Positions 2,576-23,877 of a stretch of DNA of 24,000 nt are shown one piece after another. Numbering within the stretch: the first letter of the stretch is position 1; each line of letters starts with the position of its first letter. The DNA lies in contig NZ_BCVD01000046.1 of NCBI RefSeq assembly GCF_001591565.1, forward strand, positions 1,375-25,374. Direction: 5' to 3'. Below the pieces are notes generated by a model. It made no database searches. It was not told the DNA's origin and saw only the letters and a list, made by a program, of their open reading frames with translations. A program made the translations under genes and the position numbers. Source of the DNA: Priestia flexa NBRC 15715 (GTDB taxonomy: Bacteria > Bacillota > Bacilli > Bacillales > Bacillaceae_H).

Positions 2576-3916
2576 TTATTTACTATATGATTTAACTTGT
2601 TTTGAGTGAACTACTTTACCTTTTAGATTATATAAGCTAAGAAGATAACCGCCCATAGCCCCAGCGATTGCTGGTACTAACCAACCAAATCCTGTGTTAT
2701 ACAATGGCAAAGTCTTTACAAGTTCCCCCCAAGCACCTAAGTTTAACCCTGACTGAAGACAAGCGTCCGTTACGCTTACAATTCCAACGAATAAAATAGA
2801 TAAAGCATATACACCTTGCTTTCCTTTGATTAAAGAATTCGTTAATGATAGAACAATTAGCATAATAGCAACAGGGTAAATAGCTGTTAAAACTGGAACT
2901 GAAATTTTTAGAATCATGGTTAATCCTAAGTTTGCAACAAGTAAACTAAATACGGCAATTGTACTAACCCAAACCTTATATGATACTTTCGGTACTAATT
3001 GCTCAAAATACTGACTGCATGAGGTTAATAATCCAACAGAAGTTGTTAAACACGCTAGCGTAAATACAACTCCTAATAGAACAGCTCCGAACGGTCCAAA
3101 AAGCGTAAATACAATGTTCGTTAACGTTATTGCTCCATTTGCTGCATTGGCATGACTAACAGATCCTAAATATGCCAGCATAAGATAAATAATAGCTAGC
3201 AACGTTCCTGCAATTACTCCTGCACGAATGGATGATGACATAATACTTTTCGCACTAGTCATTCCTTTTTGCTTCAAAGCCATTGCAATGACAATTCCAA
3301 AGTTTAGCGCAGCGATTGTATCCATGGTCGCATAACCATCGGTAAATCCAGTAGCGAATGCTTTTGTGACATAATTACCTGCAGGTTGACCAGCCGGCTC
3401 AAAAGGATAAGAAAGGGCACGAATAAAAATAAGTGAAATAAGAACTAATAAAACTGGCGTTAATACTTTTCCAAAGCGGTCAACAAGCTTTGAAGGCTTT
3501 AAAGCTAACCAGTAAGCAAGTGCAAAATAACAAAACGTATATCCAAACAGCGCGGCTTTTACATTTACTCCTTCAGGTAAAAAAGGCTGTACGCCCATTT
3601 CAAATGCTAAGCTTCCTGCTCGTGGGATTCCTAAAAAAGGTCCAATTGCTAAGTAAATCATGACCGTAAATACAACGGCGAAAACTGGGTGGACTCGGTT
3701 TGCTAATGAATGAAGACCATTTGATTTTGCTACAGCAATGACACCCAGGATTGGTAGCCCCACAGCCGATAAAATGAAGCCTGTAACAGCTGGCCACAAT
3801 TCACTTCCAGCAGACTGTCCTAAAAATGGAGGGAAAATTAAGTTTCCTGCTCCAAAAAATAATGAGAATAGCATTAAACTAATAAACAGTGTATCTTTTC
3901 TTGATAAAGCATTCAT
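2576..3916 (-). CDS. brnQ: Branched-chain amino acid transport system II carrier (LIVCS family)
   Basis: MNALSRKDTLFISLMLFSLFFGAGNLIFPPFLGQ... is a polytopic protein of about 446 aa with the typical BrnQ N-terminus. The start was moved to ATG 3916, which is preceded by TAGGAGGAAC. The track ORF extends upstream to 3973. Confidence 0.9.
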   Translation of the reverse strand: MNALSRKDTLFISLMLFSLFFGAGNLIFPPFLGQSAGSELWPAVTGFILSAVGLPILGVIAVAKSNGLHSLANRVHPVFAVVFTVMIYLAIGPFLGIPRAGSLAFEMGVQPFLPEGVNVKAALFGYTFCYFALAYWLALKPSKLVDRFGKVLTPVLLVLISLIFIRALSYPFEPAGQPAGNYVTKAFATGFTDGYATMDTIAALNFGIVIAMALKQKGMTSAKSIMSSSIRAGVIAGTLLAIIYLMLAYLGSVSHANAANGAITLTNIVFTLFGPFGAVLLGVVFTLACLTTSVGLLTSCSQYFEQLVPKVSYKVWVSTIAVFSLLVANLGLTMILKISVPVLTAIYPVAIMLIVLSLTNSLIKGKQGVYALSILFVGIVSVTDACLQSGLNLGAWGELVKTLPLYNTGFGWLVPAIAGAMGGYLLSLYNLKGKVVHSKQVKSYSK

Positions 3917-4003
3917 GTGAGTTCCTCCTAGATTGTTTGTATTTCTGATTTTTCTGTCTAATGTCAATATCACTTTCCACTCGAATCACTCCTTTTTATA
4001 CAC

Positions 4004-4258
4004 AAAAAAATCCCGTCCCTAAAAAGGGACGAGATATAATTCTCGCGTTACCACCCTCGTTCTGCTAAAAACAGCAGCACTCGCCAACGTACGTGTTCAT
4101 ACGTGTTCCTTCTAACGGTGGACGTCCGAATATACTTACTATAAGGCTTCAGCATATTTTCTCAGAGATGATTTTCAGCTAGGAACTGTACGCTAACTTT
4201 CAGCAAACGTTAGCTCTCTGGGGAACAGTTTTCATAACCTACTCGTTCTCTTCAACGA
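4004..4258 (-). promoter_or_regulatory. T-box leader (tRNA-sensing riboswitch) with terminator, controlling brnQ. Probable specifier is AUC (Ile)
   Basis: The minus strand shows the GA/K-turn and AGTA box (TTGAAGAGAACGAGTAGG) and the distal CCAGAGAG...GCTGAAAG. It also shows a specifier-loop-like GAAA-AUC-A-UCUC (AUC = plus 4170-4172) and the T-box sequence GAGGGTGGTAACGCG (plus 4044-4056). The terminator is GTCCCTTTTTAGGGACGGGATTTTTTT (plus 4004-4034). Confidence 0.85.
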
Positions 4259-4437
4259 ATTTATAAGGTGTTTTAATTGAATAAAAATATTCTAACAAAA
4301 CTTTTAAGATTTGTATACAAAAATTAAAATATTTTATCAATTATATTTTTTCCCATTAATAGTCAGTCTATAAAATGAAACTTCTAGCTAATTCGTTCGT
4401 ATATACTACTATATTACTTAATAGGAGGCTCTTATAC

Positions 4438-4725
4438 ATGAGCGGAAATGTACGTGTTATGAAATGGCTAACGGCTGGGTATGAAGCATTTTTAGGTATT
4501 CCTCTAATTGGTGGTGCATTCATCATAAGCTTTTCATGGGGACCTTTAGTATTTGCTTTTTTCCTGCATGCAATTGCTCTATTTTTATCTCATAAAGAAG
4601 GTCGTTCAGCTTACGGAAATATTTTGGGGATGGTGACATCATTTGTCGGCGTAATCCCAGTTGTGGGAATGGTTATGCATATTATTACCGCTATTGTTAT
4701 TGCATTTGAAGCAGCAAAAAGATAA
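4438..4725 (+). CDS. Small hypothetical membrane protein (95 aa, about 3 TM segments)
   Basis: ATG 4438 is preceded by TAGGAGG (4421-4428 region). Product MSGNVRVMKWLTAGYEAFLGIPLIGGAFIISFSWGPLVFAFFLHAIALF... is strongly hydrophobic. The upstream extension in the ORF track has no RBS. Confidence 0.6.
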   Translation: MSGNVRVMKWLTAGYEAFLGIPLIGGAFIISFSWGPLVFAFFLHAIALFLSHKEGRSAYGNILGMVTSFVGVIPVVGMVMHIITAIVIAFEAAKR

Positions 4726-4733
4726 ATAACCGC

Positions 4734-4761
4734 TTGCATTTTTCCCTAATGATGGTAGAAT
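4734..4761 (+). promoter_or_regulatory. Sigma-A-type promoter for the thiC leader
   Basis: TTGCAT (4734-4739), a 16-nt spacer ending in TGG (extended -10), then TAGAAT (4756-4761), about 20 nt before the THI-box. Confidence 0.55.
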
Positions 4762-4782
4762 GAAGTCGTCAATTAAATGATT

Positions 4783-4882
4783 TTCTACTAGGGGTGTCTG
4801 ATTACACAGACTGAGAGAAGAGTTATTGTGCTCTTTAACCCTCTGAACCTGATTTGGGTTATACCAACGTAGGGAAGTAGTC
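4783..4882 (+). promoter_or_regulatory. TPP (THI-box) riboswitch aptamer
   Basis: CTAGGGGTGTC...GACTGAGAG...AACCCTCTGAACCTGATTTGGGTTATACCAACGTAGGGAAG matches the THI-box consensus. It lies upstream of thiC. Confidence 0.9.
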
Positions 4883-4926
4883 TTGAAAGAACGGTGTTTT
4901 ATGCTGTTTTCTTTTTTGTCTATTCC

Positions 4927-4958
4927 ATCGGGCTCTTACATAGAGCCCGATTTTTTTG
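4927..4958 (+). terminator. Riboswitch-controlled intrinsic terminator in the thiC leader
   Basis: ATCGGGCTC-TTACATA-GAGCCCGAT followed by TTTTTTT, about 50 nt before the thiC start. Confidence 0.8.
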
Positions 4959-4991
4959 TTCGGTATAGCTTATTTTCTCAAAATCTACTAG

Positions 4992-6776
<1,785 letters not shown>

Positions 6777-6783
6777 TAAAAAG

Positions 6784-6813
6784 CACCGAGGTAAGCAACT
6801 ACTTATCTCGGTG
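6784..6813. terminator. Bidirectional terminator between convergent thiC and the vanZ-like gene
   Basis: CACCGAG (6784-6790) and CTCGGTG (6807-6813) form a stem with a 16-nt loop, preceded by AAAAAG. The U-tracts are weak. Confidence 0.5.
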
Positions 6814-6814
6814 T

Positions 6815-7258
6815 CTATCGTTTTAAAATAAGTCTTTTAAAGAAAAAGAGCAGCTTAACTAAAATCCATCCGACCAGTGTTCCAATTGAATTTAGCAGAA
6901 TATCATCAATATCAAAAACTCGCTCTGTTAACTCATATTGTAAAATCTCAACAGTGAAACTGATTAAGAACCCTGTGACAACCACTTGAATAAATCCGTC
7001 AAATGATTTCATAAAAAGCGGTATAAACATTCCAATTGGAGCAAACATTACAATATTCCCTATTACGTTCACGAATGCTAGCTCAAGATTTCCACTGGCC
7101 CACATGAGCTTAATTGTACTAAATAAGCTTAAGTTCATGGCTTGCCCATATACTTGCTCGTTTTCTTTAATGAGCGTGACGTAAATAAGTGTCACACCAT
7201 ATATAATAAACAAGAAAAGCAATCCTTGTTTTACTTTTTTCTTTGTATTATCCGTCAT
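6815..7258 (-). CDS. VanZ-like family membrane protein
   Basis: MTDNTKKK...NLSLFSTIKL...NVIGNIVMFAPIGMFIPL...SFTVEILQYELTERVFDIDDILLNSIGTLVGW matches the VanZ pattern (N..PF.., N..F.P.G, E..Q...R..D..D...N..G). The start was moved to ATG 7258 behind GAAGGTG. The track's GTG 7270 lies inside the RBS. Confidence 0.75.
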   Translation of the reverse strand: MTDNTKKKVKQGLLFLFIIYGVTLIYVTLIKENEQVYGQAMNLSLFSTIKLMWASGNLELAFVNVIGNIVMFAPIGMFIPLFMKSFDGFIQVVVTGFLISFTVEILQYELTERVFDIDDILLNSIGTLVGWILVKLLFFFKRLILKR

Positions 7259-7921: not shown

Positions 7922-8951
7922 CGAGTGATTGCTTTTCACCGTTAAAATTAGATCAACAGGGATAAGCTCATAGTGAAATGAAATCGTAGCAATATATAAT
8001 GCTGGTAGACTGATTGCCACAAAAAAAACTAAAGATCCTCAACAATCGAAAGAAAGAGCCGTACAAAGAGCGCGTATTATAATCTTCTGGTGATTGATAG
8101 AATGTAAAAAAGCAAGAAGGCGCAACAATTGTGGATGAGTTTCCAGCTGTCATAATCACAATTCTTCCTTCTAATAAATTCCCCATCACGCGGTCCGGTC
8201 TTTCTGTATTAAGCGGCTGTGGAAAAGGTGAAAACGGTGAATTTTCAAGAGCTTCTTCAATAATACTCCCGCTTTCCACCGCGTCCACGTCAATTGATTC
8301 TAATCGTCGAAATACTTCTTCATAGTATTCTGGATTTGAAATTCCTTTAAGGTATAAAACAGCTACTCTCGTGCGCGAAATTGTACCGACTTCAAGGTAT
8401 TTAACGATTAAGCTTCCATCTAAAAAACGCTGACGCATTAAGTTTATGTTTTTATCTAGATTTTCAACAAACCCTTCATGAGAACCGCGCACAACTTTTT
8501 CATCGATTGCTTGGCTAACTTCCCTAGATGCAGGAAGCGTAGCATCAATTACATATAAAATGGGTGTATCTTCAAGAAATAAAATAGCTCCTCCGCGACA
8601 GAGCAACGTAATGATTTCATGCAAATCTTGAGATTCGTTAACGGAACCGATTTGAATAACCTCTTTTGGGTCTCCTTCCTTTTCAAGAAGCATTAGTTTA
8701 ATTACATGTTCGTTTAATTTCACCGAATCCATGAATGGTACAAAATACATTAAAAGCGCTTTTTTACCATTAAAAGTTAACCAGCGCTCACCTAAATCAC
8801 TTGTATAGTCTAAGTACTCTTGAATATACTTTTTATTTTCTTCAATTGTTAGTTTGAGCGGAATGTTGATAGATGCTGGATCTTGCTTTGGTACGCTTGC
8901 TTGCTTTTGTTTTTTCTTTTTGGGATAACGTTTAATCAGCATCAAATCCAC
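7913..8951 (-). pseudogene. GerA-family spore germination protein, A subunit, frameshifted and C-terminally truncated
   Basis: The N-terminal soluble domain is intact (..ILFLEDTPILYVIDATLPASREVSQAIDEKVVRGSHEGFVENLDKNINLMRQR..PQPLNTERPDRVMGNLLEGRIVIM..FYQSPEDYNTR..FFRLLR). After LRIFSFF the frame breaks at a T8 run (plus A8 at 8021-8028). The +1 frame continues VAISLPALYIATISFHYELIPVDLILT, which is the expected first TM region. It then diverges and stops at 7913. The remaining ~150-200 aa membrane domain is absent. Confidence 0.8.
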
Positions 8952-10469: not shown

Positions 10470-10909
10470 TTGTCGCTGTTCTCTCCTGTTACAACTCGAT
10501 AAAGCTTGTTAGCAATTTCTTTTAGCTGCTGTGTTTCTTCCATAGATAAATGGGAATAGTAGCGCTCTATAATAAATTGATCAATTCGTTCATATTCATC
10601 AAAGTATTCCTGCCCTTTAGGACCAAGCGTTAAAAGGATTTCCCGACGATTTTCAGGATTAAGTTCTCGATGCAAATAACTTTCTTTTTCTAATTTAGTA
10701 ATAAGCTGACTAACAGAGCTCATTGACAAATTATATTTTTTCGCAATCGTCTGCACGTTTACAGGTTGCATATCATAAACTGACCTCAGCACATTAAATT
10801 GCTTTGGCGTAATATCATTAATTAGCGAAGAAAAGTACGTCTTCATTAAATAATCGTTTACTTTATTAAATATAGAAATAGCTTTTTTTATATTATCAGC
10901 TTGTTCCAT
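10466..10909 (-). CDS. MarR-family transcriptional regulator
   Basis: 147 aa. ITPKQFNVLRSVYDMQPVNVQTIAKKYNLSMSSVSQLITKLEKESYLHRELNPENRREILLTLGPKG reads as a winged HTH. The stop overlaps the next gene's start as ATGA. RBS AGGAG lies 8 nt before the ATG. Confidence 0.85.
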   Translation of the reverse strand: MEQADNIKKAISIFNKVNDYLMKTYFSSLINDITPKQFNVLRSVYDMQPVNVQTIAKKYNLSMSSVSQLITKLEKESYLHRELNPENRREILLTLGPKGQEYFDEYERIDQFIIERYYSHLSMEETQQLKEIANKLYRVVTGENSDK

Positions 10910-10920
10910 TTAGACACTCC

Positions 10921-10982
10921 TAGTTTATATACTTAAATAGTTTAACTACATAAACTATATAACGGAGACGAATAGCTGTCAA
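10921..10982 (-). promoter_or_regulatory. Sigma-A promoter with palindromic candidate MarR operator
   Basis: On the minus strand: TTGACA (plus 10977-10982), 17 nt, TATAGT (plus 10954-10959). The inverted repeat ATAGTTTA / TAAACTAT (10937-10944 and 10951-10958) overlaps the -10 element. A third half-site, TAGTTTATA, lies at 10921-10929. Confidence 0.55.
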
Positions 10983-10986
10983 CTAC

Positions 10987-11019
10987 AAGAAGCCCCTTCT
11001 TGTATAGAAGTGGCTTCTT
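10987..11019 (-). terminator. Hairpin downstream of yhbH (possible terminator; no clear U-tract)
   Basis: Minus strand reads AAGAAGCCACTTC-TATACAA-GAAGGGGCTTCTT, a 13-bp stem with 1 mismatch, 10 nt after the yhbH stop. Confidence 0.4.
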
Positions 11020-11029
11020 AAGTGATACC

Positions 11030-12208
11030 TTATGCATATTTTGTTCCTTCTGGCTCTTTTCTAAAAAAGCTTTTCATCGCATGAAATACATCTGCTTTTT
11101 GCTTAAGAATAAAATGGCGGAACTGTTCATCCTGAATATTCTTATATGCAGACATTAAAGTCGAATGACGATTGTATTGATTTACTTCTCCATATCCAAA
11201 CATATTAGAAACCTTCATTAGTTCGTTTACAAGCTTAACACACCTTGCGTTGTCGGATGTCAAATTGTCGCCATCTGAAAAGTGAAATGGATAAATATTA
11301 TAACGGCTAGGATCGTACTTTTTATTAATCAATTCAAGTGCTTTACGGTAAGCTGATGAACAAATAGTTCCACCGCTTTCTCCCTTAGAGAAAAAGTCTT
11401 CTTCTGAAACAACTTTGGCTTCTGTATGATGGGCAATAAATTCAATTTCGACAGTTTCATACTTTGTTCGTAAAAAGCGAGTCATCCAAAAGAAAAAACT
11501 TCTCGCCATATACTTTTCCCAAATCCCCATAGACCCACTTGTATCCATCATCGCAAGCACAACTGCTTTTGATTCAGGTTTTGTTACTTCATTCCACGTC
11601 TTAAACTTTAAATCTTCAGGGAAAATTGGGTGAAATGCAGGCTTACCAGTCATTGCATTTCTCTTGTACGCAGACATCATCGTGCGCTTTTTATCAATGT
11701 TCCCCATCAAGCCAGTACGTCGAATATCATTAAATTCAATGTGTTCAACAACAATGTTATCAGATTCTTTTCGCTGTAAATTCGGAAGTTCAAGCTGTGC
11801 AAACAGTGCTTCTTGTAGCTCCATGAGCGATACTTCTGCTTCAAAGTAATCTTCTCCAGCTTGATCACCTGCACCTTGACCTTTGCCAGCACCTTTTTTT
11901 CCATCACCGCCAGATCCATCTCTGGCTACCACATCTCCTACCTTACTTTCCCCATCACCTTGACCAACATGTTTATTCTTATCATAATTGTAGCGAATTC
12001 TGTACTCATCTAATGAACGAATTGGAATCTTAACAACGTCTCTCCCATTTGACATGACAATGTTTTCTTCTGTAATTAAATCCGGTAAGTTATTCTTTAT
12101 CGCTTCTTGGATTTTTTCTTGGTGTCGCTTCTGATCGTCATGACCCTTACGGTGGAGGGACCAGTCTTCCTTGGAAATCGCAAAACTCTTATCAATCTCT
12201 TTACCCAC
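11030..12208 (-). CDS. yhbH: YhbH/UPF0229 family protein (PrkA-partner, stress/sporulation-associated)
   Basis: ...[31 protein letters not shown]...DEYRIRYN...MMDTSGSMG...FHFSDGDN... shows the DUF444/vWA-like motifs. It lies directly downstream of prkA, as in B. subtilis. The start was moved to GTG 12208, which is preceded by AAGGAGGGG. Confidence 0.88.
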
Positions 12209-12391
12209 GTATTTCCCCTCCTTGTTCAAGCTGCTTTTGAAAGGTTGGTTATTCTATCCTATGTCTCAAAATGGTATACTTGCTAATTAATTTAGCTTCG
12301 ACTTTTAAAAAGTCCGGCTGTACACTATCATATGAAAAAGCATCTACTGTGAATGAGATAAATGCCTATTTTGCTAATATAAAAGATAAAG

Positions 12392-12427
12392 AAAACATGG
12401 CACATATCAGCGGTGCCATGTTTTTTA
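12392..12427. terminator. Hairpin/terminator between prkA and yhbH
   Basis: AAAACATGGCAC (12392-12403) and GTGCCATGTTTT (12412-12423) form a 12-bp perfect stem with T-rich sequence on both sides. Confidence 0.65.
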
Positions 12428-12434
12428 TCATTCT

Positions 12435-14330
12435 TTATCGATTCAATAAGCTTCCTACATAGCGTAAAAGTTCGTTCGCTGAAACGGAATTATAGCCATG
12501 CTCATCAATTAAGCGAGCAACTACCTCATTTACTTTTTTCAGCTGCTGTTCGTCTGGTGTCTTCGTTGATGTGGTAATTTTCACTACATCTTTTAAGTCC
12601 GCAAATAATTTTTTCTGAATAGCTTCACGTAAACGCTCGTGCGAATTATAGTCAAAGCGTTTCCCTTTACGAGCATACGCAGAAATACGGATTAAGATTT
12701 CTTCACGGAACGCTTTCTTCGCATTTTCTGAAATGCCAATTTGCTCTTCAATTGAGCGCATTAGCTTTTCATCTGGATTCATTTCTTCCCCTGTTAACGG
12801 ATCGCGCAGCTTGTTTTTATTGCAATATGCCTCAACGTTATCGAGGTAGTTCTCCATCAGCGTCTTCGCTGATTCTTCATATGAATATACGAATGCTTTT
12901 TGAACTTCTTTTTTCGCGATTTCATCATATTCTTTACGTGCTAATGAAATGTAGTTTAGATAGCGCTCACGGTCTTCTGCTGAAATAGATGCATGCTGAT
13001 CTAACCCCTCTTTTAGTGAACGCAATACATCTAACGCATTAATTGATTTAATATCTTTTCGAATGATGGTTGATGAAATACGGTTAATTACATAACGTGG
13101 ATCGATTCCACTCATACCTTCATCCGAATGTTCTTTCTTCAACTCTTCCACATCTGCATCGTTGTAACCTTCAACAGATTGGCCATCATATAGCCTCATT
13201 TTCTTTAATAGATCAATATCGCCTTTTTTAGGCTCTTTTAATCTTGTTAGCGTTGTAAAGATGGAAGCAATGCGCAGCGTATGTGGTGCGATATGCACAT
13301 CCGATACGTCGCTTTCTCGAATCATTTTTTCATAGATTTTCTCTTCTTCACTAACCTTTAAGTTATATGGAACCGGCATGACGATAATACGTGAATGCAA
13401 GGCTTCATTTTTCTTATTCGAAATAAAGGAGCGATACTCCGTTTCATTTGTATGTGCGACGATTAATTCATCTGCACTAATTAAAGCAAATCGTCCTGCT
13501 TTAAAATTCCCTTCTTGGGTAAGAGATAATAAATGCCATAAGAACTTCTCATCACACTTTAACATCTCCTGGAACTCCATCATTCCTCGGTTCGCTTTAT
13601 TTAGCTCTCCGTCAAATCGATATGCTCGTGGATCTGATTCTGATCCGTATTCAGCAATGGTTGAAAAGTCAATGCTTCCTGTTAAGTCAGCAATGTCCTG
13701 AGATTTTGGATCAGATGGACTGAATGTACCAATCCCCGTACGTTTATCTTCAGAGAAGAAGATTCTTTCGACAATAACGTCTTCAATTCTGCCGCCATAC
13801 TCTTCCTCTAATCTCATTGTATTTAAAGGCGATAAGTTTCCTTCAACTCGAATGCCATACTCTTCATAGAAGTCTCGACGCAGATGGTGTGGAATTAAAT
13901 GAAGTGGATCTTCATGCATTGGGCATCCTTTGATTGCATAGACAGCACCACGATCTGTTAAAGAATACGCTTCTAATCCTCTTTTTAGCATGGTAACTAG
14001 CGTTGATTTCCCTCCACTAACTGGTCCCATAAGTAATAAAATACGCTTCCGGACATCTAATCGTTTCGCTGCAGGATGGAAGTATTCTTCAACCAGCCTT
14101 TCAAGCGATTCTTCTAGACCAAACATTTGTTCACTGAAGAATTTATATTGCTTTTTCCCATTGACATCTTCAATTCCTGCATCTTTAATCATATTGTAGA
14201 CCCTTGAATGCGCTGGCTGAGCAATTAAAGGCTCATCTTTAATTAGTTTTAAATATTCTTCAAATGTACCTTCCCATTTAAGTCGATTCTCTGCTTCACG
14301 GTATTTTTCAATTTTCTTTAATATATCCAT
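12435..14330 (-). CDS. prkA: PrkA serine protein kinase / AAA+ protease-like protein
   Basis: MDILKKIEKYREAENRLKWEGTFEEYL..., Walker A LLLMGPVSGGKST, about 631 aa. The start was moved to ATG 14330 behind GGGGAGG. The track extends to 14369. Confidence 0.95.
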   Translation of the reverse strand: MDILKKIEKYREAENRLKWEGTFEEYLKLIKDEPLIAQPAHSRVYNMIKDAGIEDVNGKKQYKFFSEQMFGLEESLERLVEEYFHPAAKRLDVRKRILLLMGPVSGGKSTLVTMLKRGLEAYSLTDRGAVYAIKGCPMHEDPLHLIPHHLRRDFYEEYGIRVEGNLSPLNTMRLEEEYGGRIEDVIVERIFFSEDKRTGIGTFSPSDPKSQDIADLTGSIDFSTIAEYGSESDPRAYRFDGELNKANRGMMEFQEMLKCDEKFLWHLLSLTQEGNFKAGRFALISADELIVAHTNETEYRSFISNKKNEALHSRIIVMPVPYNLKVSEEEKIYEKMIRESDVSDVHIAPHTLRIASIFTTLTRLKEPKKGDIDLLKKMRLYDGQSVEGYNDADVEELKKEHSDEGMSGIDPRYVINRISSTIIRKDIKSINALDVLRSLKEGLDQHASISAEDRERYLNYISLARKEYDEIAKKEVQKAFVYSYEESAKTLMENYLDNVEAYCNKNKLRDPLTGEEMNPDEKLMRSIEEQIGISENAKKAFREEILIRISAYARKGKRFDYNSHERLREAIQKKLFADLKDVVKITTSTKTPDEQQLKKVNEVVARLIDEHGYNSVSANELLRYVGSLLNR

Positions 14331-20634: not shown

Positions 20635-20687
20635 TACCAGTGGTCGGGGTCGAACCGACACTCCCGAAGGAACACGATTTTGAGTCC
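20635..20687 (-). pseudogene. 3' half of a tRNA-Leu(CAA) gene (anticodon loop to acceptor end); candidate att site of the adjacent island
   Basis: Minus strand reads GACTCAAAATCGTGTTCCTTCGGGAGTGTCGGTTCGACCCCGACCACTGGTA. It has anticodon loop CUCAAAA, a long class-II variable arm with a UUCG loop, T arm GTCGG-TTCGACC-CCGAC, and the acceptor 3' strand. No D arm or 5' acceptor strand is present further upstream, and anticodon-stem pairing breaks down at about 20688. Confidence 0.75.
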
Positions 20688-20835: not shown

Positions 20836-21228
20836 TTAAATCTTATTGAATTTGGCTTGCCCCAATTTTTTATACTCTCTTATGAGCTCCTTTTCAAATC
20901 TTCTTGCATCTTCTTCTCGATTAAACTCTCCTACAAACTTATATTCAATTTTACCATCCTTCATTAGTTGCTTATGTTCCGTGTTTCTTCTATTAGTATA
21001 TCTTCTGCACCGATACCAAACTCCACTTCCTATATAAACAACTTCACCATTTAATAAATGAAGATAAACAGTATATTTGTTTACTTTTCTAAGCTCACTT
21101 GAATTAAGCTTATATTTTTTAATAAGTTGGATTACTTTTTGAAATGTAATACCATAAATACTTGCAATGTCTTGATTGGTCATCTTATTTGATAAATGTT
21201 CAATAATTTCTTCTTTTGTTGGTAACAT
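20836..21228 (-). CDS. Small HTH + GIY-YIG-like nuclease-domain protein (130 aa)
   Basis: The N-terminus NQDIASIYGITFQKVIQLIKKY is HTH-like. The C-terminus reads YTVYLHLLNGEVVYIGSGVWYRCRRYTNRRNTEHKQL...ARRFEKELIREYKKLGQAKFN. It fits the GIY-(x9-11)-YIG pattern followed by Arg, His, Glu and Asn. RBS AGGAGG lies 10 nt before ATG 21228. Confidence 0.55.
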   Translation of the reverse strand: MLPTKEEIIEHLSNKMTNQDIASIYGITFQKVIQLIKKYKLNSSELRKVNKYTVYLHLLNGEVVYIGSGVWYRCRRYTNRRNTEHKQLMKDGKIEYKFVGEFNREEDARRFEKELIREYKKLGQAKFNKI

Positions 21229-21315
21229 AAAAAATCAACCTCCTAGAATTGTTATATCTAGAAGATTGACTTTGTAAATCGAATTTTATTATAAAATAAC
21301 CATTCCACAACAAAT

Positions 21316-23400
21316 TTAAGTTGGAGAATCAGCGGTTTTCTCTTGTTTCTCCTCTTCATCTGTTGGAATCTTTATATACTCTTTCATCTTTTCTAAAGAA
21401 AGTAATCCAAACTTATCTTTGGCTTTTGATATTTTCTCTTCAAGGTATTTTAAATATTCTGGTTTGATATATGGAGTTAATACGAATTTTATATCAATAT
21501 TATCCCCCATCTTCATCCAGCCAGGAAGGGAATTCTCATAAGCAAAGACCCTCTGAGTATAAATGATTAAGGCCATTTTTTGCATACAATATATAATAGT
21601 ATCTTCATTAAACACAAAATCTACATCCAAATCCGAAAAGCAATACCCCTCTAGCTTTGCCCTTGATAAATAAATATCTTCACCATTATTTTCCTTTAAT
21701 TCTGCAAAAGTATCCTTTAAGATATTACCATGAGAATGATTAGTTATTAAATATTTAACTAAGAATCCTGTTACAGGATACTTGGATAACTCTATACCTT
21801 TTAATATAGACTGCAAAATGAGGTATATGATTGCTTGCTCTATATTAGAGCTTTCACTGCTTTCTATCTTAATATGAACTCCGGTTGTCCATGAAACCTC
21901 AACTTCTGTTTTACCTGCTTCAACTTCCGATTTACCCTTTTCTCCTTTGTTCATAAGCCTCTTCATAGAGTATGCAAGATGACTAAGTAAGTTTATATCT
22001 CCTTGTTCTACTGCATTTAATAGTAAATGCTTATAAATTCTTAACCCACCAATACTTGAAACATCTTGAGCAATCTCTCGGCTACAGAACTGCTCTAAAA
22101 AGTCTAAGACTGTTCGAAATAGTACGGGTTCATCTGAATCCAAGTACATAATTAATTCATGTAAAATAGTATGAAATTCTTTTTTCAGATCTTCAAACTG
22201 GTCTGATGGCTCGAAAGTAAAGAGTATTTCTATACATCGTGATATTTCGGAATGACGATTATGATCGTGTAGTGATTTTATTAATGCTACATGCTGAATT
22301 AGCAACGATTTATGTAAACTTTTATAAGCTTCTTCAGAGTTTTGTGCCTTAGAAGCTTGATATAGTAACTGAGAAGGTATGGTAATTTGTGAATTCTCCC
22401 CAAGATAATCCATCATCTCCTGTGGAATACCTTCAATAAAAAGAGAAGATAACTGCTCCAACGACTTAGAAGACTCATTATAAACTTCCATCATATTTTT
22501 CTCCACACAAACAATTAATGTTTGATAATAGGTTTCAATAGAAGCATTTAAATATTCATATAAACCTTTTCTGAATTTAAAATCTTTGTTCAAAATCATT
22601 ACTTGAATAATAACAGTATTAATACTAGACATTGAGTGTCTAAGTAGTGTCCTAATGTCGATACTGTTAAGCATTTTACGAAGAGTATTAACCCCATAAA
22701 ATAAACTCATACAAGTAATGATAATCCATATAGGAAGTCTTACTAAGTTTTGAGGATCTTCATAGAAATTTAACATATTGTCTTTATTAAATGGGATAGC
22801 GAAAATCTTCCCATAAATTGTATTGAAAAGGATAAGAGCTAAACCTACTATAAATCCCATATTACCAGATGCTAAGTTACTACTAATAGCAACAGATTTT
22901 CTCTCTCTATAAGCAAAAAAATAAATAGTAAGAGAAATTGACCAAAAGATTGCTAGAACGTTAGATGCTACATCAATTACTCCAATTGTATATGAAGGAT
23001 ACTTCTTTATTGCTTTTACAACATTTAAATTGATTTGCATAAACCATTCGTTAATATGTTGTAAAACATACACAATAGTTTTTGTATTAGGAATAGTTAA
23101 ATATAAAAAATAAAATAGCCCTATAAAAATTATAGGACTAATCATTGTAGCGTAAAAATTATATTTACCTGCAACATAGATTAGTTCTTTTCTCCATATT
23201 GATATTGTGGATATAAATTTCAAAAGGGAGATGTTAAAATTCTTAAGCTTTTGATTATTTTTTCGAAATACATGCTTGGTGTAAAAAATAAAACTTTGAT
23301 ATGGATATATAAAATTAATTATTTTTTTCGTTAGAGCTATTATTTTCTTTCTTATTAAAAACAAAATAATCAATATAAGTATCTTACTAAAAAATGACAA
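21316..23400 (-). CDS. 694-aa membrane protein of unknown family: N-terminal ~5 TM segments plus a ~450-aa C-terminal helical soluble domain
   Basis: Long uninterrupted ORF with a TTG start at 23400, 6 nt after GGGGGAA. Hydrophobic segments are KILILIILFLI, ATMISPIIFIGLFYFLYLTIP, VASNVLAIFWSISLTIYFFAY, GNMGFIVGLALILFNTIYGKIFAI and LPIWIIITCMSLFYGV. I recognise no catalytic or nucleotide-binding motif in the remainder. Confidence 0.75.
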   Translation of the reverse strand: MSFFSKILILIILFLIRKKIIALTKKIINFIYPYQSFIFYTKHVFRKNNQKLKNFNISLLKFISTISIWRKELIYVAGKYNFYATMISPIIFIGLFYFLYLTIPNTKTIVYVLQHINEWFMQINLNVVKAIKKYPSYTIGVIDVASNVLAIFWSISLTIYFFAYRERKSVAISSNLASGNMGFIVGLALILFNTIYGKIFAIPFNKDNMLNFYEDPQNLVRLPIWIIITCMSLFYGVNTLRKMLNSIDIRTLLRHSMSSINTVIIQVMILNKDFKFRKGLYEYLNASIETYYQTLIVCVEKNMMEVYNESSKSLEQLSSLFIEGIPQEMMDYLGENSQITIPSQLLYQASKAQNSEEAYKSLHKSLLIQHVALIKSLHDHNRHSEISRCIEILFTFEPSDQFEDLKKEFHTILHELIMYLDSDEPVLFRTVLDFLEQFCSREIAQDVSSIGGLRIYKHLLLNAVEQGDINLLSHLAYSMKRLMNKGEKGKSEVEAGKTEVEVSWTTGVHIKIESSESSNIEQAIIYLILQSILKGIELSKYPVTGFLVKYLITNHSHGNILKDTFAELKENNGEDIYLSRAKLEGYCFSDLDVDFVFNEDTIIYCMQKMALIIYTQRVFAYENSLPGWMKMGDNIDIKFVLTPYIKPEYLKYLEEKISKAKDKFGLLSLEKMKEYIKIPTDEEEKQEKTADSPT

Positions 23401-23412
23401 TTAAATTCCCCC

Positions 23413-23444
23413 AAAAAAATAAGGCGCAATTTAATTAGCGCCTT
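23413..23444 (-). terminator. Intrinsic terminator/attenuator hairpin between the Panacea gene and the 694-aa gene
   Basis: Minus strand reads AAGGCGC-TAATTAAATT-GCGCCTT followed by ATTTTTTT. The stop codon of the upstream gene lies in the loop. The hairpin ends about 12 nt before the next gene's start codon, and its U-tract abuts that gene's GGGGGAA RBS. Confidence 0.6.
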
Positions 23445-23877
23445 GCAATAGTCCACCATAATATTCTTGCATATCTTCTATTTGGATAATTTCATTCATT
23501 CCTTTACTCCAAGCATTTAACCATGGTGATTCTTTATGTGTAAGTGTTTCTAAATACTTGCCATCATACTCTCCATATAGTTTCCATACACCTTCTAATA
23601 CTTCTAAATCTTCCGGATTAATTTGAAAATTAATTTTGTCCACGGGAGGAATTTCTCGAGAACCGTAATCACGATATTCACGATACAACTCACGAGACAC
23701 TGGTCCATGTAACCATGCTTCTAATTCACTATTAAATACCGGACGACCATGTATAGCCATACTCCACGCCTGAGCATAATATACAAGCTTTTGTAATTTC
23801 AAATGTGTAATAGAGAAATTCCGACCTGCCAAACTCTTGTTTCTAAAGTATAGAGCCACTTGACGAACATCCATCAT
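23431..23877 (-). CDS. Panacea/DUF4065 (SocA/GepA-like) antitoxin-domain protein, 148 aa
   Basis: ITHLKLQKLVYYAQAWSMAIHGRPVFNSELEAWLHGPVSRELYREYRDYG...LTHKESPWLNAW matches the DUF4065 signature as I remember it (T.lKLqKLlYyaqgw.l...g.plF...feAW.yGPV...vY..y...g ... tH.e.PW). RBS AAAGGAGGG lies 8 nt before ATG 23877. Confidence 0.85.
   Translation of the reverse strand: MMDVRQVALYFRNKSLAGRNFSITHLKLQKLVYYAQAWSMAIHGRPVFNSELEAWLHGPVSRELYREYRDYGSREIPPVDKINFQINPEDLEVLEGVWKLYGEYDGKYLETLTHKESPWLNAWSKGMNEIIQIEDMQEYYGGLLQGAN

Follow-up and report, generated by a model that had tools for sequence, protein, structure and literature searches.

Gene organization of the locus

The window, by which we mean the whole 24,000-nucleotide stretch of Priestia flexa NBRC 15715 analysed here, carries two adjacent genes on its reverse strand, separated by 30 nt (Table 1). 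The downstream gene encodes a 694-aa protein. The upstream gene, panA, which is absent from the preliminary description of the locus, encodes a protein that matches the Pfam family PF13274 (SocA_Panacea) with an E-value of 1.3e-21 and a score of 78 bits, for a cut-off (gathering score) of 25.7, and the PHROGs family phrog_1281 with an E-value of 3.3e-46. It is identical to WP_082802723.1, annotated as 'Panacea domain-containing protein [Priestia]'. The NCBIfam SocA_antitoxin model NF047745 is also matched (E=1.3e-17, 64 bits, equivalog cut-off 190), the alignment covering only the N-terminal 75 residues of PanA. Only 123 nt of the window lie 5' of panA, and no specific promoter could be assigned in them.

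The GC content is 0.26-0.33 over the 694-aa gene, compared with 0.35-0.40 in the remaining window. Identical 694-aa open reading frames are present in independent assemblies, and dN/dS values of 0.08-0.22, obtained by comparison with three relatives, reveal purifying selection on the gene.

Table 1. Features of the panA locus, with positions in the window and the basis of each assignment.
Feature	Position	Strand	Basis or remark
panA, gene of a 148-aa standalone Panacea/SocA-domain antitoxin	23431..23877	-	directly upstream of the 694-aa open reading frame
Terminator-like intercistronic hairpin, AAGGCGC-N10-GCGCCTT followed by AUUUUUUU	23413..23444	-	read from sequence
Shine-Dalgarno sequence GGGGGAA	23406..23412	-	5-nt spacer before the TTG start (23400-23398); read from sequence
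694-aa putative toxin gene, unnamed family of PanA-partnered membrane proteins	21316..23400	-	TTG start
Five-helix transmembrane module, residues 1-245	22666..23400	-	hydropathy, positive-inside counts, pLDDT
TM3-TM4 cytoplasmic loop, residues 164-180, signature YRE[QR]K..S.S	22861..22911	-	alignments
Cytoplasmic all-alpha domain resembling a helical repeat, residues 246-694	21316..22665	-	AlphaFold2 model
Variable disordered low-complexity linker KGEKGKSEVEAGKTEVEV, residues 485-502	21895..21948	-	alignment, pLDDT
Most conserved C-terminal sub-domain, residues 516-660	21421-21855	-	conservation profile
Remnant like the 3' half of tRNA-Leu(CAA)	20635..20687	-	island end (attR-like), downstream of the module

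Family and genomic context of the 694-aa protein

The 694-aa protein has 9 close relatives, and a profile search at E≤1e-3 retrieved at least 157 clusters of relatives, mostly full length. The clusters are all unnamed, those carrying a source name come from Bacillales, and at least 130 full-length relatives share the same architecture. The protein had been presented as an orphan, which is thus wrong. Profile searching, which the same description had advised in iterative form, yielded this full-length family and no confident match to a known one. A second homologue search with a 63-sequence alignment returned the same 9 proteins only, while a locus search with alignment A1 added a single genome locus. 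No relative was detected by tblastn in 50,697 phage genomes with the queries tried, or in IMG/VR contigs with alignment A1 or single distant members as queries; the only sign of a phage-borne lifestyle is therefore the prophage-like context of some loci.

The lack of recognisable motifs, noted from the start, was borne out by profile scans: the 694-aa protein has no match in Pfam or PADLOC even at E≤1, and none in PHROGs or NCBIfam. Distant members scanned with these libraries likewise gave no hit, and a scan of 63 family members gave no consistent profile match and no enzyme profile. Known Abi and defence families (PADLOC-DB v2; Pfam Abi_2, Abi_C, AbiH, SLATT and others) do not match the protein, and neither panA nor the 694-aa gene matches any PADLOC defence model. 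We also considered a transporter or a tape-measure protein: Pfam gave no such match, and the Foldseek matches to tape-measure proteins have an E-value of 0.48 and a TM-score of 0.09.

The pairing with panA is strict. At all 16 distinct loci, which span 17-81% toxin identity and belong to Priestia, Metabacillus, Peribacillus, the B. cereus group, Brevibacillus and metagenomes, a PanA gene lies immediately upstream of the putative toxin gene, in the same order and on the same strand. Only one of these partners (L010) is divergent, and it is still recognised by a PanA profile from which it had been left out. The intergenic gap was measured at 13 loci: it is 0-57 nt long in 12 of them and reaches 111 nt in L006. 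The distance matrices of PanA and of its partner are correlated (r=0.77, Mantel p about 2e-4), a result that demonstrates joint inheritance rather than contact.

Two of the loci (L001 and L002) are satellite-like islands with RepA_N, portal, Peptidase_S78 plus capsid, and Terminase_4 (TerS) genes. Other relatives occupy moron-like positions in prophage-like regions that end in holin-amidase genes or lie near an integrase, and B. cereus-group megaplasmids also carry the module. In some loci its neighbours are restriction-modification enzymes, a TIR protein, Abi_C and HNH, as in defence islands. The tRNA-Leu remnant is identical in L001, L002 and L015 to L017. At L015, which belongs to the same species, an intact tRNA-Leu(CAA) and an integrase are found at the far end of the island; this island has Abi_C, HNH_2, DUF5655 and IS21 copies in place of capsid genes. 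A foreign origin, proposed earlier from the AT-rich composition, agrees both with the dip in GC content and with an island ending at the tRNA-Leu-like remnant. A downstream 130-aa gene was considered as a third component of the module and rejected: it is missing in L003, and IS21 stands in its place in L015.

Membrane module and C-terminal domain

A Kyte-Doolittle scan located hydrophobic segments at about residues 5-22, 84-103, 141-162, 180-200 and 222-239 of the 694-aa protein, and the family-mean hydropathy profile repeats the same five stretches. The loops are basic, loop 17-70 holding 12 K/R and zero D/E. The topology is predicted to have the N-terminus outside and the C-terminus inside; it assigns the C-terminal domain to the cytoplasm, the compartment in which PanA would also be found. 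AlphaFold2 modelled residues 51 to 250 with pLDDT values of about 78-96. Helices TM3-5 form the conserved core of the family, TM1-2 vary, and the extracytoplasmic loops together with TM1-2 are the most variable parts of the protein. The loop between TM3 and TM4 ties for the top regional conservation, with a score of 0.45: R165, E166 and S173 are retained in about 84-92% of the sequences, and F162, located in TM3 just before the loop, is invariant in the 63-sequence alignment.

The model of the whole protein, computed from a 130-sequence alignment, has a pLDDT of 87.9 and a pTM of 0.87; it supersedes a run with 10 sequences, in which the pLDDT was 61. Sub-domain 516-660 likewise shares the highest conservation within the protein (0.43-0.45). 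Residues K534, E537, G545, Y604 and K608 are invariant in this sub-domain, and K549, Q616, Y652 and K656 nearly so. There is no His or Asp among the invariant residues of the family alignments, and the family lacks conserved triads of His, Asp or Cys as well as conserved metal-binding motifs. The linker is gapped and variable across homologues, with pLDDT values below 50 at residues 500-509.

Foldseek searches of the PDB and BFVD returned no significant match, the best E-values being 0.025 and 0.032, respectively. The matches are to generic solenoid or designed-repeat proteins only, with TM-scores of at most 0.2-0.29, and a sequence-profile search of the PDB gave designed helical repeats only, which are compositional matches. 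Several elements of the preliminary description are thus confirmed: the five hydrophobic helices with basic loops, seen in both hydropathy analyses; the split between this module and a helical domain, seen in the hydropathy and in the all-alpha model of residues 246-694; and the low-complexity linker, placed near residue 500 and found at residues 485-502. The structure prediction and fold search also suggested there have been carried out, and no confident fold match emerged.

A terminator-like hairpin between the two genes

The sequence between panA and the 694-aa gene can form a hairpin that resembles an intrinsic terminator and holds the panA stop codon (23433-23431) in its loop. Its folding energy is -11.3 kcal/mol (z = -2.5). 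An equivalent hairpin followed by a U-tract was found at 14 of the 16 distinct loci, and the hairpins of distant loci are unrelated in sequence. When strict criteria were applied, a hairpin was retained at 9 of 13 junctions, compared with about 1.7% of random windows.

Translation of the 694-aa gene had previously been suggested to be deliberately low on account of the TTG start. This argument carries little weight, given a strong Shine-Dalgarno sequence and relatives that use ATG or GTG. Among the 13 loci read, 8 start with ATG, 4 with GTG and only the one in the window with TTG, and GGGGGA or GGAGGA occupies the equivalent Shine-Dalgarno position in relatives. We therefore rejected TTG as a low-translation device of the family. 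The recurrent control feature is the terminator-like hairpin that separates panA from the putative toxin gene, rather than the TTG start.

A putative PanAT-type toxin-antitoxin module

PanA antitoxins neutralise dozens of unrelated toxins, several of them membrane-disrupting, and the typical PanAT operon described by Kurata et al. (2022, PMC8832971) has the antitoxin gene first and a gap of at most 100 nt (FlaGs criteria). According to the account of Ernits et al. (2023, PMC10440598), standalone Panacea proteins neutralise directly and may act as sensors. The locus has a PF13274 partner above threshold and two genes with a gap of no more than 100 nt, in several species. With moderate confidence, we interpret the 694-aa protein as the toxin (or effector) component of a PanAT-type toxin-antitoxin module that consists of two genes and travels as cargo on mobile elements. 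The toxicity, membrane action and phage defence attributed to this module are inferred, the toxicity of the 694-aa protein solely because of its partnership with PanA. The preliminary description had guessed at a toxin, and the PanA antitoxin gene directly upstream gives this guess strong contextual support.

By analogy with other standalone Panacea antitoxins, PanA, which would be cytoplasmic and is devoid of a DNA-binding domain, may bind the cytoplasmic face of the membrane protein and hold it inactive. Should PanA be displaced, triggered or lost, phage infection being one possible cause, the transmembrane module would compromise the membrane through depolarisation or pore formation. The ensuing growth stop or cell death would stabilise the element or abort the infection. 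The helical-repeat C-terminal domain would be a docking and regulatory, possibly sensing, part and not an enzyme. A leaky terminator between the two genes would keep the toxin mRNA below the antitoxin mRNA, and would thereby keep their ratio safe in an operon where autoregulation via an HTH domain is not available to the antitoxin. A terminator at this place could instead point to separate regulation of the two genes.

A more specific version of this scheme is possible but doubtful: the family may represent an undescribed class of single-chain sensor-effectors. Its three-helix membrane core would form a regulated channel or pore and its helical-repeat domain, of a new fold, would recognise a phage or stress cue. 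PanA would serve as a releasable brake, and the conserved leaky terminator, not autorepression, would set the ratio of the two proteins. If true, this would constitute a new abortive-infection mechanism spread by satellites, prophages and megaplasmids of Bacillales.

We weighed these proposals against several others. The transmembrane module could be a mere anchor for an enzymatic toxin with an unrecognised catalytic site in the C-terminal sub-domain (K534, E537, K549, Y604, K608, Q616, Y652, K656), blocked by PanA; its targets would be membrane-proximal or cytoplasmic, such as lipids, cell-wall precursors or nucleotides. Many of the PanTs described in PMC8832971 are enzymes, and sub-domain 516-660, besides tying for the highest conservation, bears most of the invariant polar residues (K, E, Y, Q). 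We consider an enzyme unlikely, however, as the 63 members contain no enzyme profile, there is no PDB sequence match, the folds match helical-repeat scaffolds only and conserved triads (His, Asp or Cys) and metal-binding motifs are absent. Moreover, conservation in the TM3-5 core and its cytoplasmic loop equals that of the C-terminal part and goes beyond what a passive anchor needs. The variability of the extracytoplasmic loops and TM1-2 is expected of surfaces facing external agents. Together with the moron-like positions in prophage-like regions and satellite-like islands, and with the sensor role proposed for Panacea in PMC10440598, it would fit a membrane protein that is no toxin: it would block phage DNA entry or monitor the envelope with PanA as regulatory or sensor partner, and would not kill the host. 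Such a function seems improbable to us given the strict pairing with a domain so far known as an antitoxin, a terminator that lowers the expression of the downstream gene, as a harmful product would require, and a large conserved domain predicted to be cytoplasmic and not external.

The mode of neutralisation may also differ from a stable complex. In a type VI-like scheme, PanA would be a proteolytic adaptor, as SocA is for SocB, and would hand the membrane protein over to ClpXP, FtsH or another protease. The founding Panacea protein is SocA according to PMC8832971, and it is the N-terminal half of PanA that matches the SocA_antitoxin model, but the 64 bits of this match are far under the equivalog cut-off of 190. 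In the work described in PMC8832971 every tested PanA formed a complex with its toxin, and PMC10440598 describes neutralisation by contact for standalone Panacea; we thus give the adaptor scheme only a small chance. Finally, the odd composition and the lack of annotation are the sole support for an artefact, either an open reading frame that arose by chance in AT-rich DNA or a fusion of two genes created by faulty sequencing or annotation. This is almost certainly not the case: identical open reading frames occur in independent assemblies, and dN/dS is about 0.1-0.2. A fusion of two genes, foreseen initially as a possible refutation, is excluded by the common architecture of at least 130 full-length relatives and by the pTM of 0.87 obtained for the model.

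Under the preferred PanAT-type reading, the PanT repertoire would extend to large multi-domain integral membrane proteins, here with a confidently predicted fold lacking any relative among solved or viral structures, and more than 150 clusters of 'hypothetical proteins' could receive a provisional role. The locus offers a testable case for two questions: by what means a standalone Panacea domain governs a membrane protein, and whether the toxin-to-antitoxin ratio can be set by an intercistronic terminator in place of antitoxin autoregulation. Its recurrence in satellite-like islands, prophage-like regions and defence islands of Bacillus-group bacteria makes the module a reasonable candidate new antiphage system of Gram-positive hosts.

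Comparison with known systems

The module shares with the membrane-targeting PanATs, including B. choladocola PanT-D11 as presented in PMC10440598, a Panacea gene placed first, a short gap and a transmembrane partner. The pair is likewise conserved across species on mobile DNA, and the antitoxin is of the standalone Panacea type that neutralises by direct contact. The validated membrane PanTs are described as small transmembrane peptides (clusters T3/T12/D11; PMC8832971). The partner found here also has predicted transmembrane segments, but its 694 aa are far from a small, peptide-like size: it is set apart from the PanTs, in their described size, by a length of about 600-750 aa in the family, by its five-helix module and by a conserved cytoplasmic helical domain of about 450 aa whose fold is unmatched. 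Owing to its length of 694 aa and this large soluble part, the protein could differ in its action from the small membrane PanTs. The conserved intercistronic terminator-like hairpin is not among the features described in the parts of PMC8832971 and PMC10440598 on which we draw. No accession of a family member was found among the entries searched of the published PanAT/NetFlax datasets, which does not prove absence from these datasets, and a literature search for newer descriptions of the family returned nothing relevant.

RosmerTA (RmrT/RmrA) and similar defence toxin-antitoxin pairs, as outlined in PMC10440598, are also two-gene systems borne by mobile elements, with a membrane-depolarising toxin, predicted or shown, and antiphage activity. 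The RosmerTA antitoxin is however an ImmA-type protease/HTH protein, not a Panacea protein, and the toxins have no sequence relationship to the 694-aa protein detectable with PADLOC or Pfam. The type VI system SocAB of Caulobacter uses the same antitoxin domain (SocA/Panacea, PF13274). It differs from the present pair in that PanA scores far under the SocA equivalog cut-off and its partner is a 5-TM protein, whereas SocB is a soluble replication inhibitor. In lambda RexAB, the transmembrane effectors of CBASS and Pycsar and the SLATT proteins, a membrane killing module is checked by, or answers, a cytoplasmic component, and these systems occur in defence islands, prophages and satellites. The 694-aa protein has no sequence or profile similarity to them; in contrast to their arrangement, its cytoplasmic domain is fused to the transmembrane module and the separate partner is of the antitoxin type.

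Family, topology and conservation of the 694-residue membrane protein

The preliminary description had presented the 694-residue protein as an orphan. Searching 5.8 billion proteins by a word index returned only nine close relatives, 50-100% identical to it and all annotated as 'hypothetical'; those with a named source come from Priestia, Metabacillus, Peribacillus and Bacillus. A profile built on these close relatives and scored against 1.84 billion cluster representatives matched 157 clusters at E<=1e-3, 71 of them at E<=1e-30. Most matched clusters are 600-750 residues long and align with the profile over its full length, so the protein is not an orphan. Their named members, all 'hypothetical protein', belong to the B. 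cereus group, Brevibacillus, Terrihalobacillus and Bacillus spp.

A hydropathy scan located five hydrophobic segments (residues ~5-22, 84-103, 141-162, 180-200 and 222-239), separated by basic loops; the loop 17-70 contains 12 K/R and no D/E. According to the positive-inside rule, the N-terminus is predicted to lie outside and the C-terminus inside, so the C-terminal 450 residues would be cytoplasmic. The low-complexity stretch KGEKGKSEVEAGKTEVEV occupies residues 485-502, and the GC content, 0.35-0.40 in the rest of the window, is only 0.26-0.33 within the gene. These segments, basic loops, low-complexity stretch and AT-rich composition had all been read correctly beforehand. The family-mean hydropathy shows the same five stretches, and five is the commonest segment count. 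Together with the family-wide full-length alignment, this common profile excludes the possibility, raised earlier, that the ORF is a fusion of two genes. The dN/dS values against three relatives (0.08-0.22) identify it as a constrained protein-coding gene.

Variability in the family is greatest in TM1-2, the outside loops and the linker. The signature [LP]xSLTxYxFxYRE[QR]KxxSxS covers the end of TM3 and the following cytoplasmic loop; in window numbering and in an alignment of 63 sequences, F162 is invariant and R165, E166 and S173 are retained in ~84-92% of the sequences. Four further signatures are conserved: ESxYQ (E289, Q293), LKSIELSxYxxTGFLIK (K534, E537, G545, K549), FNxxTxxYCxxK...QQ (N598, Y604, C605, K608, Q616) and YLxxKI...KYGL (Y652, K656).

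The 694-residue protein had no match in Pfam or PADLOC at E<=1, including their Abi and defence family models, and none in PHROGs or NCBIfam, in agreement with the earlier remark that it carries no recognisable motifs. When 63 family members were compared with Pfam one by one, only four unrelated, marginal single matches appeared (E=6e-4 to 9e-3), and a sequence profile search of the PDB with the family returned designed helical-repeat proteins only. An AlphaFold2 model based on 10 sequences was poor (pLDDT 61). The model based on a 130-sequence alignment is confident (pLDDT 87.9, pTM 0.87), with pLDDT below 50 only in the linker (500-509), and its all-helical fold bears out the helical character first read from the sequence.

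Pairing with a Panacea antitoxin-type protein

PanA, the product of the upstream gene, has the same sequence as WP_082802723.1, a 'Panacea domain-containing protein [Priestia]' that is also listed under Priestia flexa. It consists of the Panacea domain and a short C-terminal tail, and lacks an HTH or other accessory domain. We compared genomic contexts spanning the full identity range of the membrane protein relatives (17-81%): panA lies directly upstream of the membrane protein gene, on the same strand, in all 16 distinct loci. At one of these (L010) the partner has no Pfam match, yet it matches co-linearly a PanA profile built excluding it (17.9 bits), over the VWxxYGxY...L.E.TH motif; it also weakly matches the PHROG hit by the window's PanA. 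PanA is better conserved than the membrane protein (42-51% versus 20-28% identity), and their distance matrices are correlated (r=0.77, Mantel p ~2e-4), which indicates that the pair is inherited as a unit. The identity and pairing of the genes, their architecture, conservation, mobile context and hairpins are what the analysis shows.

Features of the PanA-membrane protein module and the adjoining island end in the window
Feature	Position	Strand	Details
panA	23431-23877	-	148 aa; SocA_Panacea PF13274, E=1.3e-21; 30 nt upstream of the membrane protein gene
Intercistronic hairpin	23444-23406	-	AAGGCGC-N10-GCGCCTT, AUUUUUUU and Shine-Dalgarno of the membrane protein gene; panA stop codon in loop
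Membrane protein ORF (putative toxin)	21316-23400	-	694 codons; TTG start
Hairpin between toxin stop codon and next gene	21231-21308	-	pairs with AGGAGG Shine-Dalgarno of the 130-aa gene
130-aa gene	20836-21228	-	weak N-terminal HTH_28 (E=0.0018); weak GIY-YIG-like (E=0.034)
Conserved sigma-A-like promoter	20803-20775	-	TTGACT-17-CATAAT; ahead of tRNA-like remnant
Remnant like 3' half of tRNA-Leu(CAA)	20635-20687	-	53 nt
Intrinsic terminator	20606-20579	-	after tRNA-like remnant

A hairpin between the two genes

In the window, the hairpin between panA and the membrane protein gene (-11.3 kcal/mol) is followed by AUUUUUUU and immediately by the Shine-Dalgarno sequence. The order of a hairpin at or just past the panA stop codon, a U-tract and a Shine-Dalgarno sequence recurs in 14 of the 16 distinct loci; in the remaining two, one gene abuts or overlaps the other. 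Distant loci have hairpins of unrelated sequence, and the ten that were folded range from -7.8 to -20 kcal/mol. Strict terminator-like criteria select 9 of 13 junctions (four of these junctions are mutually homologous), versus ~1.7% of random windows of the same length from the same loci, which are mostly coding sequence (P ~8e-15). In 15 loci the space between hairpin and Shine-Dalgarno sequence is too short for a separate promoter, so transcription of the downstream gene must come from read-through; the exception is L006, where the intergenic gap is 111 nt. From this arrangement we infer that a leaky terminator holds the toxin mRNA level below that of the antitoxin mRNA, which would be useful because PanA lacks a DNA-binding domain through which to repress its own synthesis. 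The TTG start had been taken as a device for low translation. This argument is weakened by the strong Shine-Dalgarno sequence, GGGGGAA with a 5-nt spacer, and by the start codons read in 13 loci: TTG occurs in the window only, and the relatives use ATG (8) or GTG (4).

Carriers of the module

Satellite-like islands of P. megaterium (L001) and M. idriensis (L002) have the pair as their final cargo, and carry genes for RepA_N, a portal, a protease-capsid fusion and a small terminase. Defence systems are known cargo of satellites (PMC10085698). In another Priestia flexa genome (L015; GCA_038050335.1, 1-15500), the chromosomal site of the module is that of the window. The last gene of a tRNA cluster, an intact tRNA-Leu(CAA), is followed there by an integrase, a 446-residue unknown protein and a cargo of Abi_C, HNH_2, DUF5655 and two IS21 copies, with PanA and the putative toxin last. 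This island resembles a defence island that has its right end in common with the two satellite-like islands. More distant members lie in prophage-like regions, either past holin-amidase and ahead of an integrase or in a dUTPase-HNH interval. Others adjoin a type IIG restriction-modification enzyme, neighbour a gene for a ParA-type ATPase (on a short contig) or are found on B. cereus-group megaplasmids near TIR, DUF1643, TerB-N, HNH and DUF4365 genes. With the queries used, no family member was found in deposited phage genomes or IMG/VR contigs.

In the closest relative (L003, 81% identity), the module lies between two other features (2890-7069 and 10518-13390). One flank encodes a DUF7380/EMARD_N protein and an unknown protein of 763 residues; the opposite flank carries a WXG100-linked Colicin-DNase/WHH toxin together with a SUKH immunity gene. 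Close by are also a resolvase and a methyltransferase-ResIII pair (N6_N4). Toxin and defence genes are mixed in this island.

Proposed mechanism and alternatives

According to published work, Panacea antitoxins neutralise dozens of unrelated toxins, including membrane-depolarising or pore-forming ones, and the pairs typically have antitoxin-first order and short gaps (PMC8832971); standalone Panacea proteins neutralise by direct contact and may sense the activating cue (PMC10440598). The present pair shares with PanAT systems the Panacea domain, the conserved two-gene architecture and the short gap. The module is ordinary in kind, most likely a toxin-antitoxin or defence pair carried by mobile DNA. 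In contrast to validated membrane PanTs, the 694-residue protein is large, and its multi-helix membrane module is fused to a sizeable, conserved soluble domain whose fold has no match; the pair also has an intercistronic terminator-like element. The family is undescribed, large and structurally unmatched, and may already figure among the untested clusters of the PanAT or NetFlax datasets.

On these precedents, we propose that cytoplasmic PanA would bind the membrane protein on its cytoplasmic side and hold it inactive, the conserved TM3-TM4 loop and the sub-domain 516-660 being candidate binding surfaces. Loss or triggering of PanA would allow the TM3-5 core to compromise the membrane, leading to growth stop or aborted phage infection, and the helical-repeat domain may have a regulatory or sensing role. 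We hold this mechanism as a whole to be moderately probable; toxicity, site of action, neutralisation by binding, antiphage role and the terminator function are what we infer within it. The invariant K/E/Y/Q cluster could instead be the active site of a membrane-anchored enzyme, which seems unlikely to us, and we give as little credence to an exclusion or sensing protein that does not kill the host and is regulated by PanA. Proteolytic neutralisation of the SocA type in place of sequestration, which is compatible with the main model, is slightly less probable still; the window's PanA falls below the SocA equivalog score, so the pair is not a SocAB system. The idea that the ORF is an artefact is refuted by the 157-cluster family, the confident model, the presence of identical 694-codon ORFs in independent assemblies and the low dN/dS, and has a negligible probability: it is a real gene.

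The island end and the rest of the window

The 130-aa gene follows the putative toxin gene in the window, L001, L002 and two further loci (L016, L017); L003 lacks it and L015 has an IS21 copy in its place, so it is part of the island end, not of the PanA-toxin module. The hairpin that precedes it could be a terminator or a translational control element. Its sub-threshold match to Rfam ohsC_RNA (36.9 bits versus a gathering score of 50) is probably due to chance in AT-rich sequence. Beyond this gene, the tRNA-like remnant shows 100% identity across P. flexa, P. megaterium L001 and M. idriensis L002, between divergent flanks. Compared with the intact tRNA-Leu(CAA) at the far island end (L015, 553-638), it is only ~75% identical, with the common core GGACTCAAAATC; the 9-nt direct repeat AATCGTGTT also precedes it. 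Two readings are possible: an attR remnant, or a small tRNA-like RNA borne by the island.

Positions 1-20400 are an ordinary Priestia-type chromosome, with genes for UppP/BacA, BrnQ, ThiC, Psd, a DedA/VTT protein, DUF444 (YhbH-like), PrkA, a SpoU methylase, Amidase_6, QueG, a B3_4 protein, tRNA-Gly(TCC) and a class 3 FBPase. A GerA-family ORF (7968-8951, minus strand) has only 327 residues and aligns with positions 2-284 of a Pfam model that has 466; a truncation or frameshift may have affected this germination gene in the strain. Gene order over positions 1-20400 is conserved in P. megaterium L001, apart from the FBPase gene, which L001 does not have between the island and tRNA-Gly.
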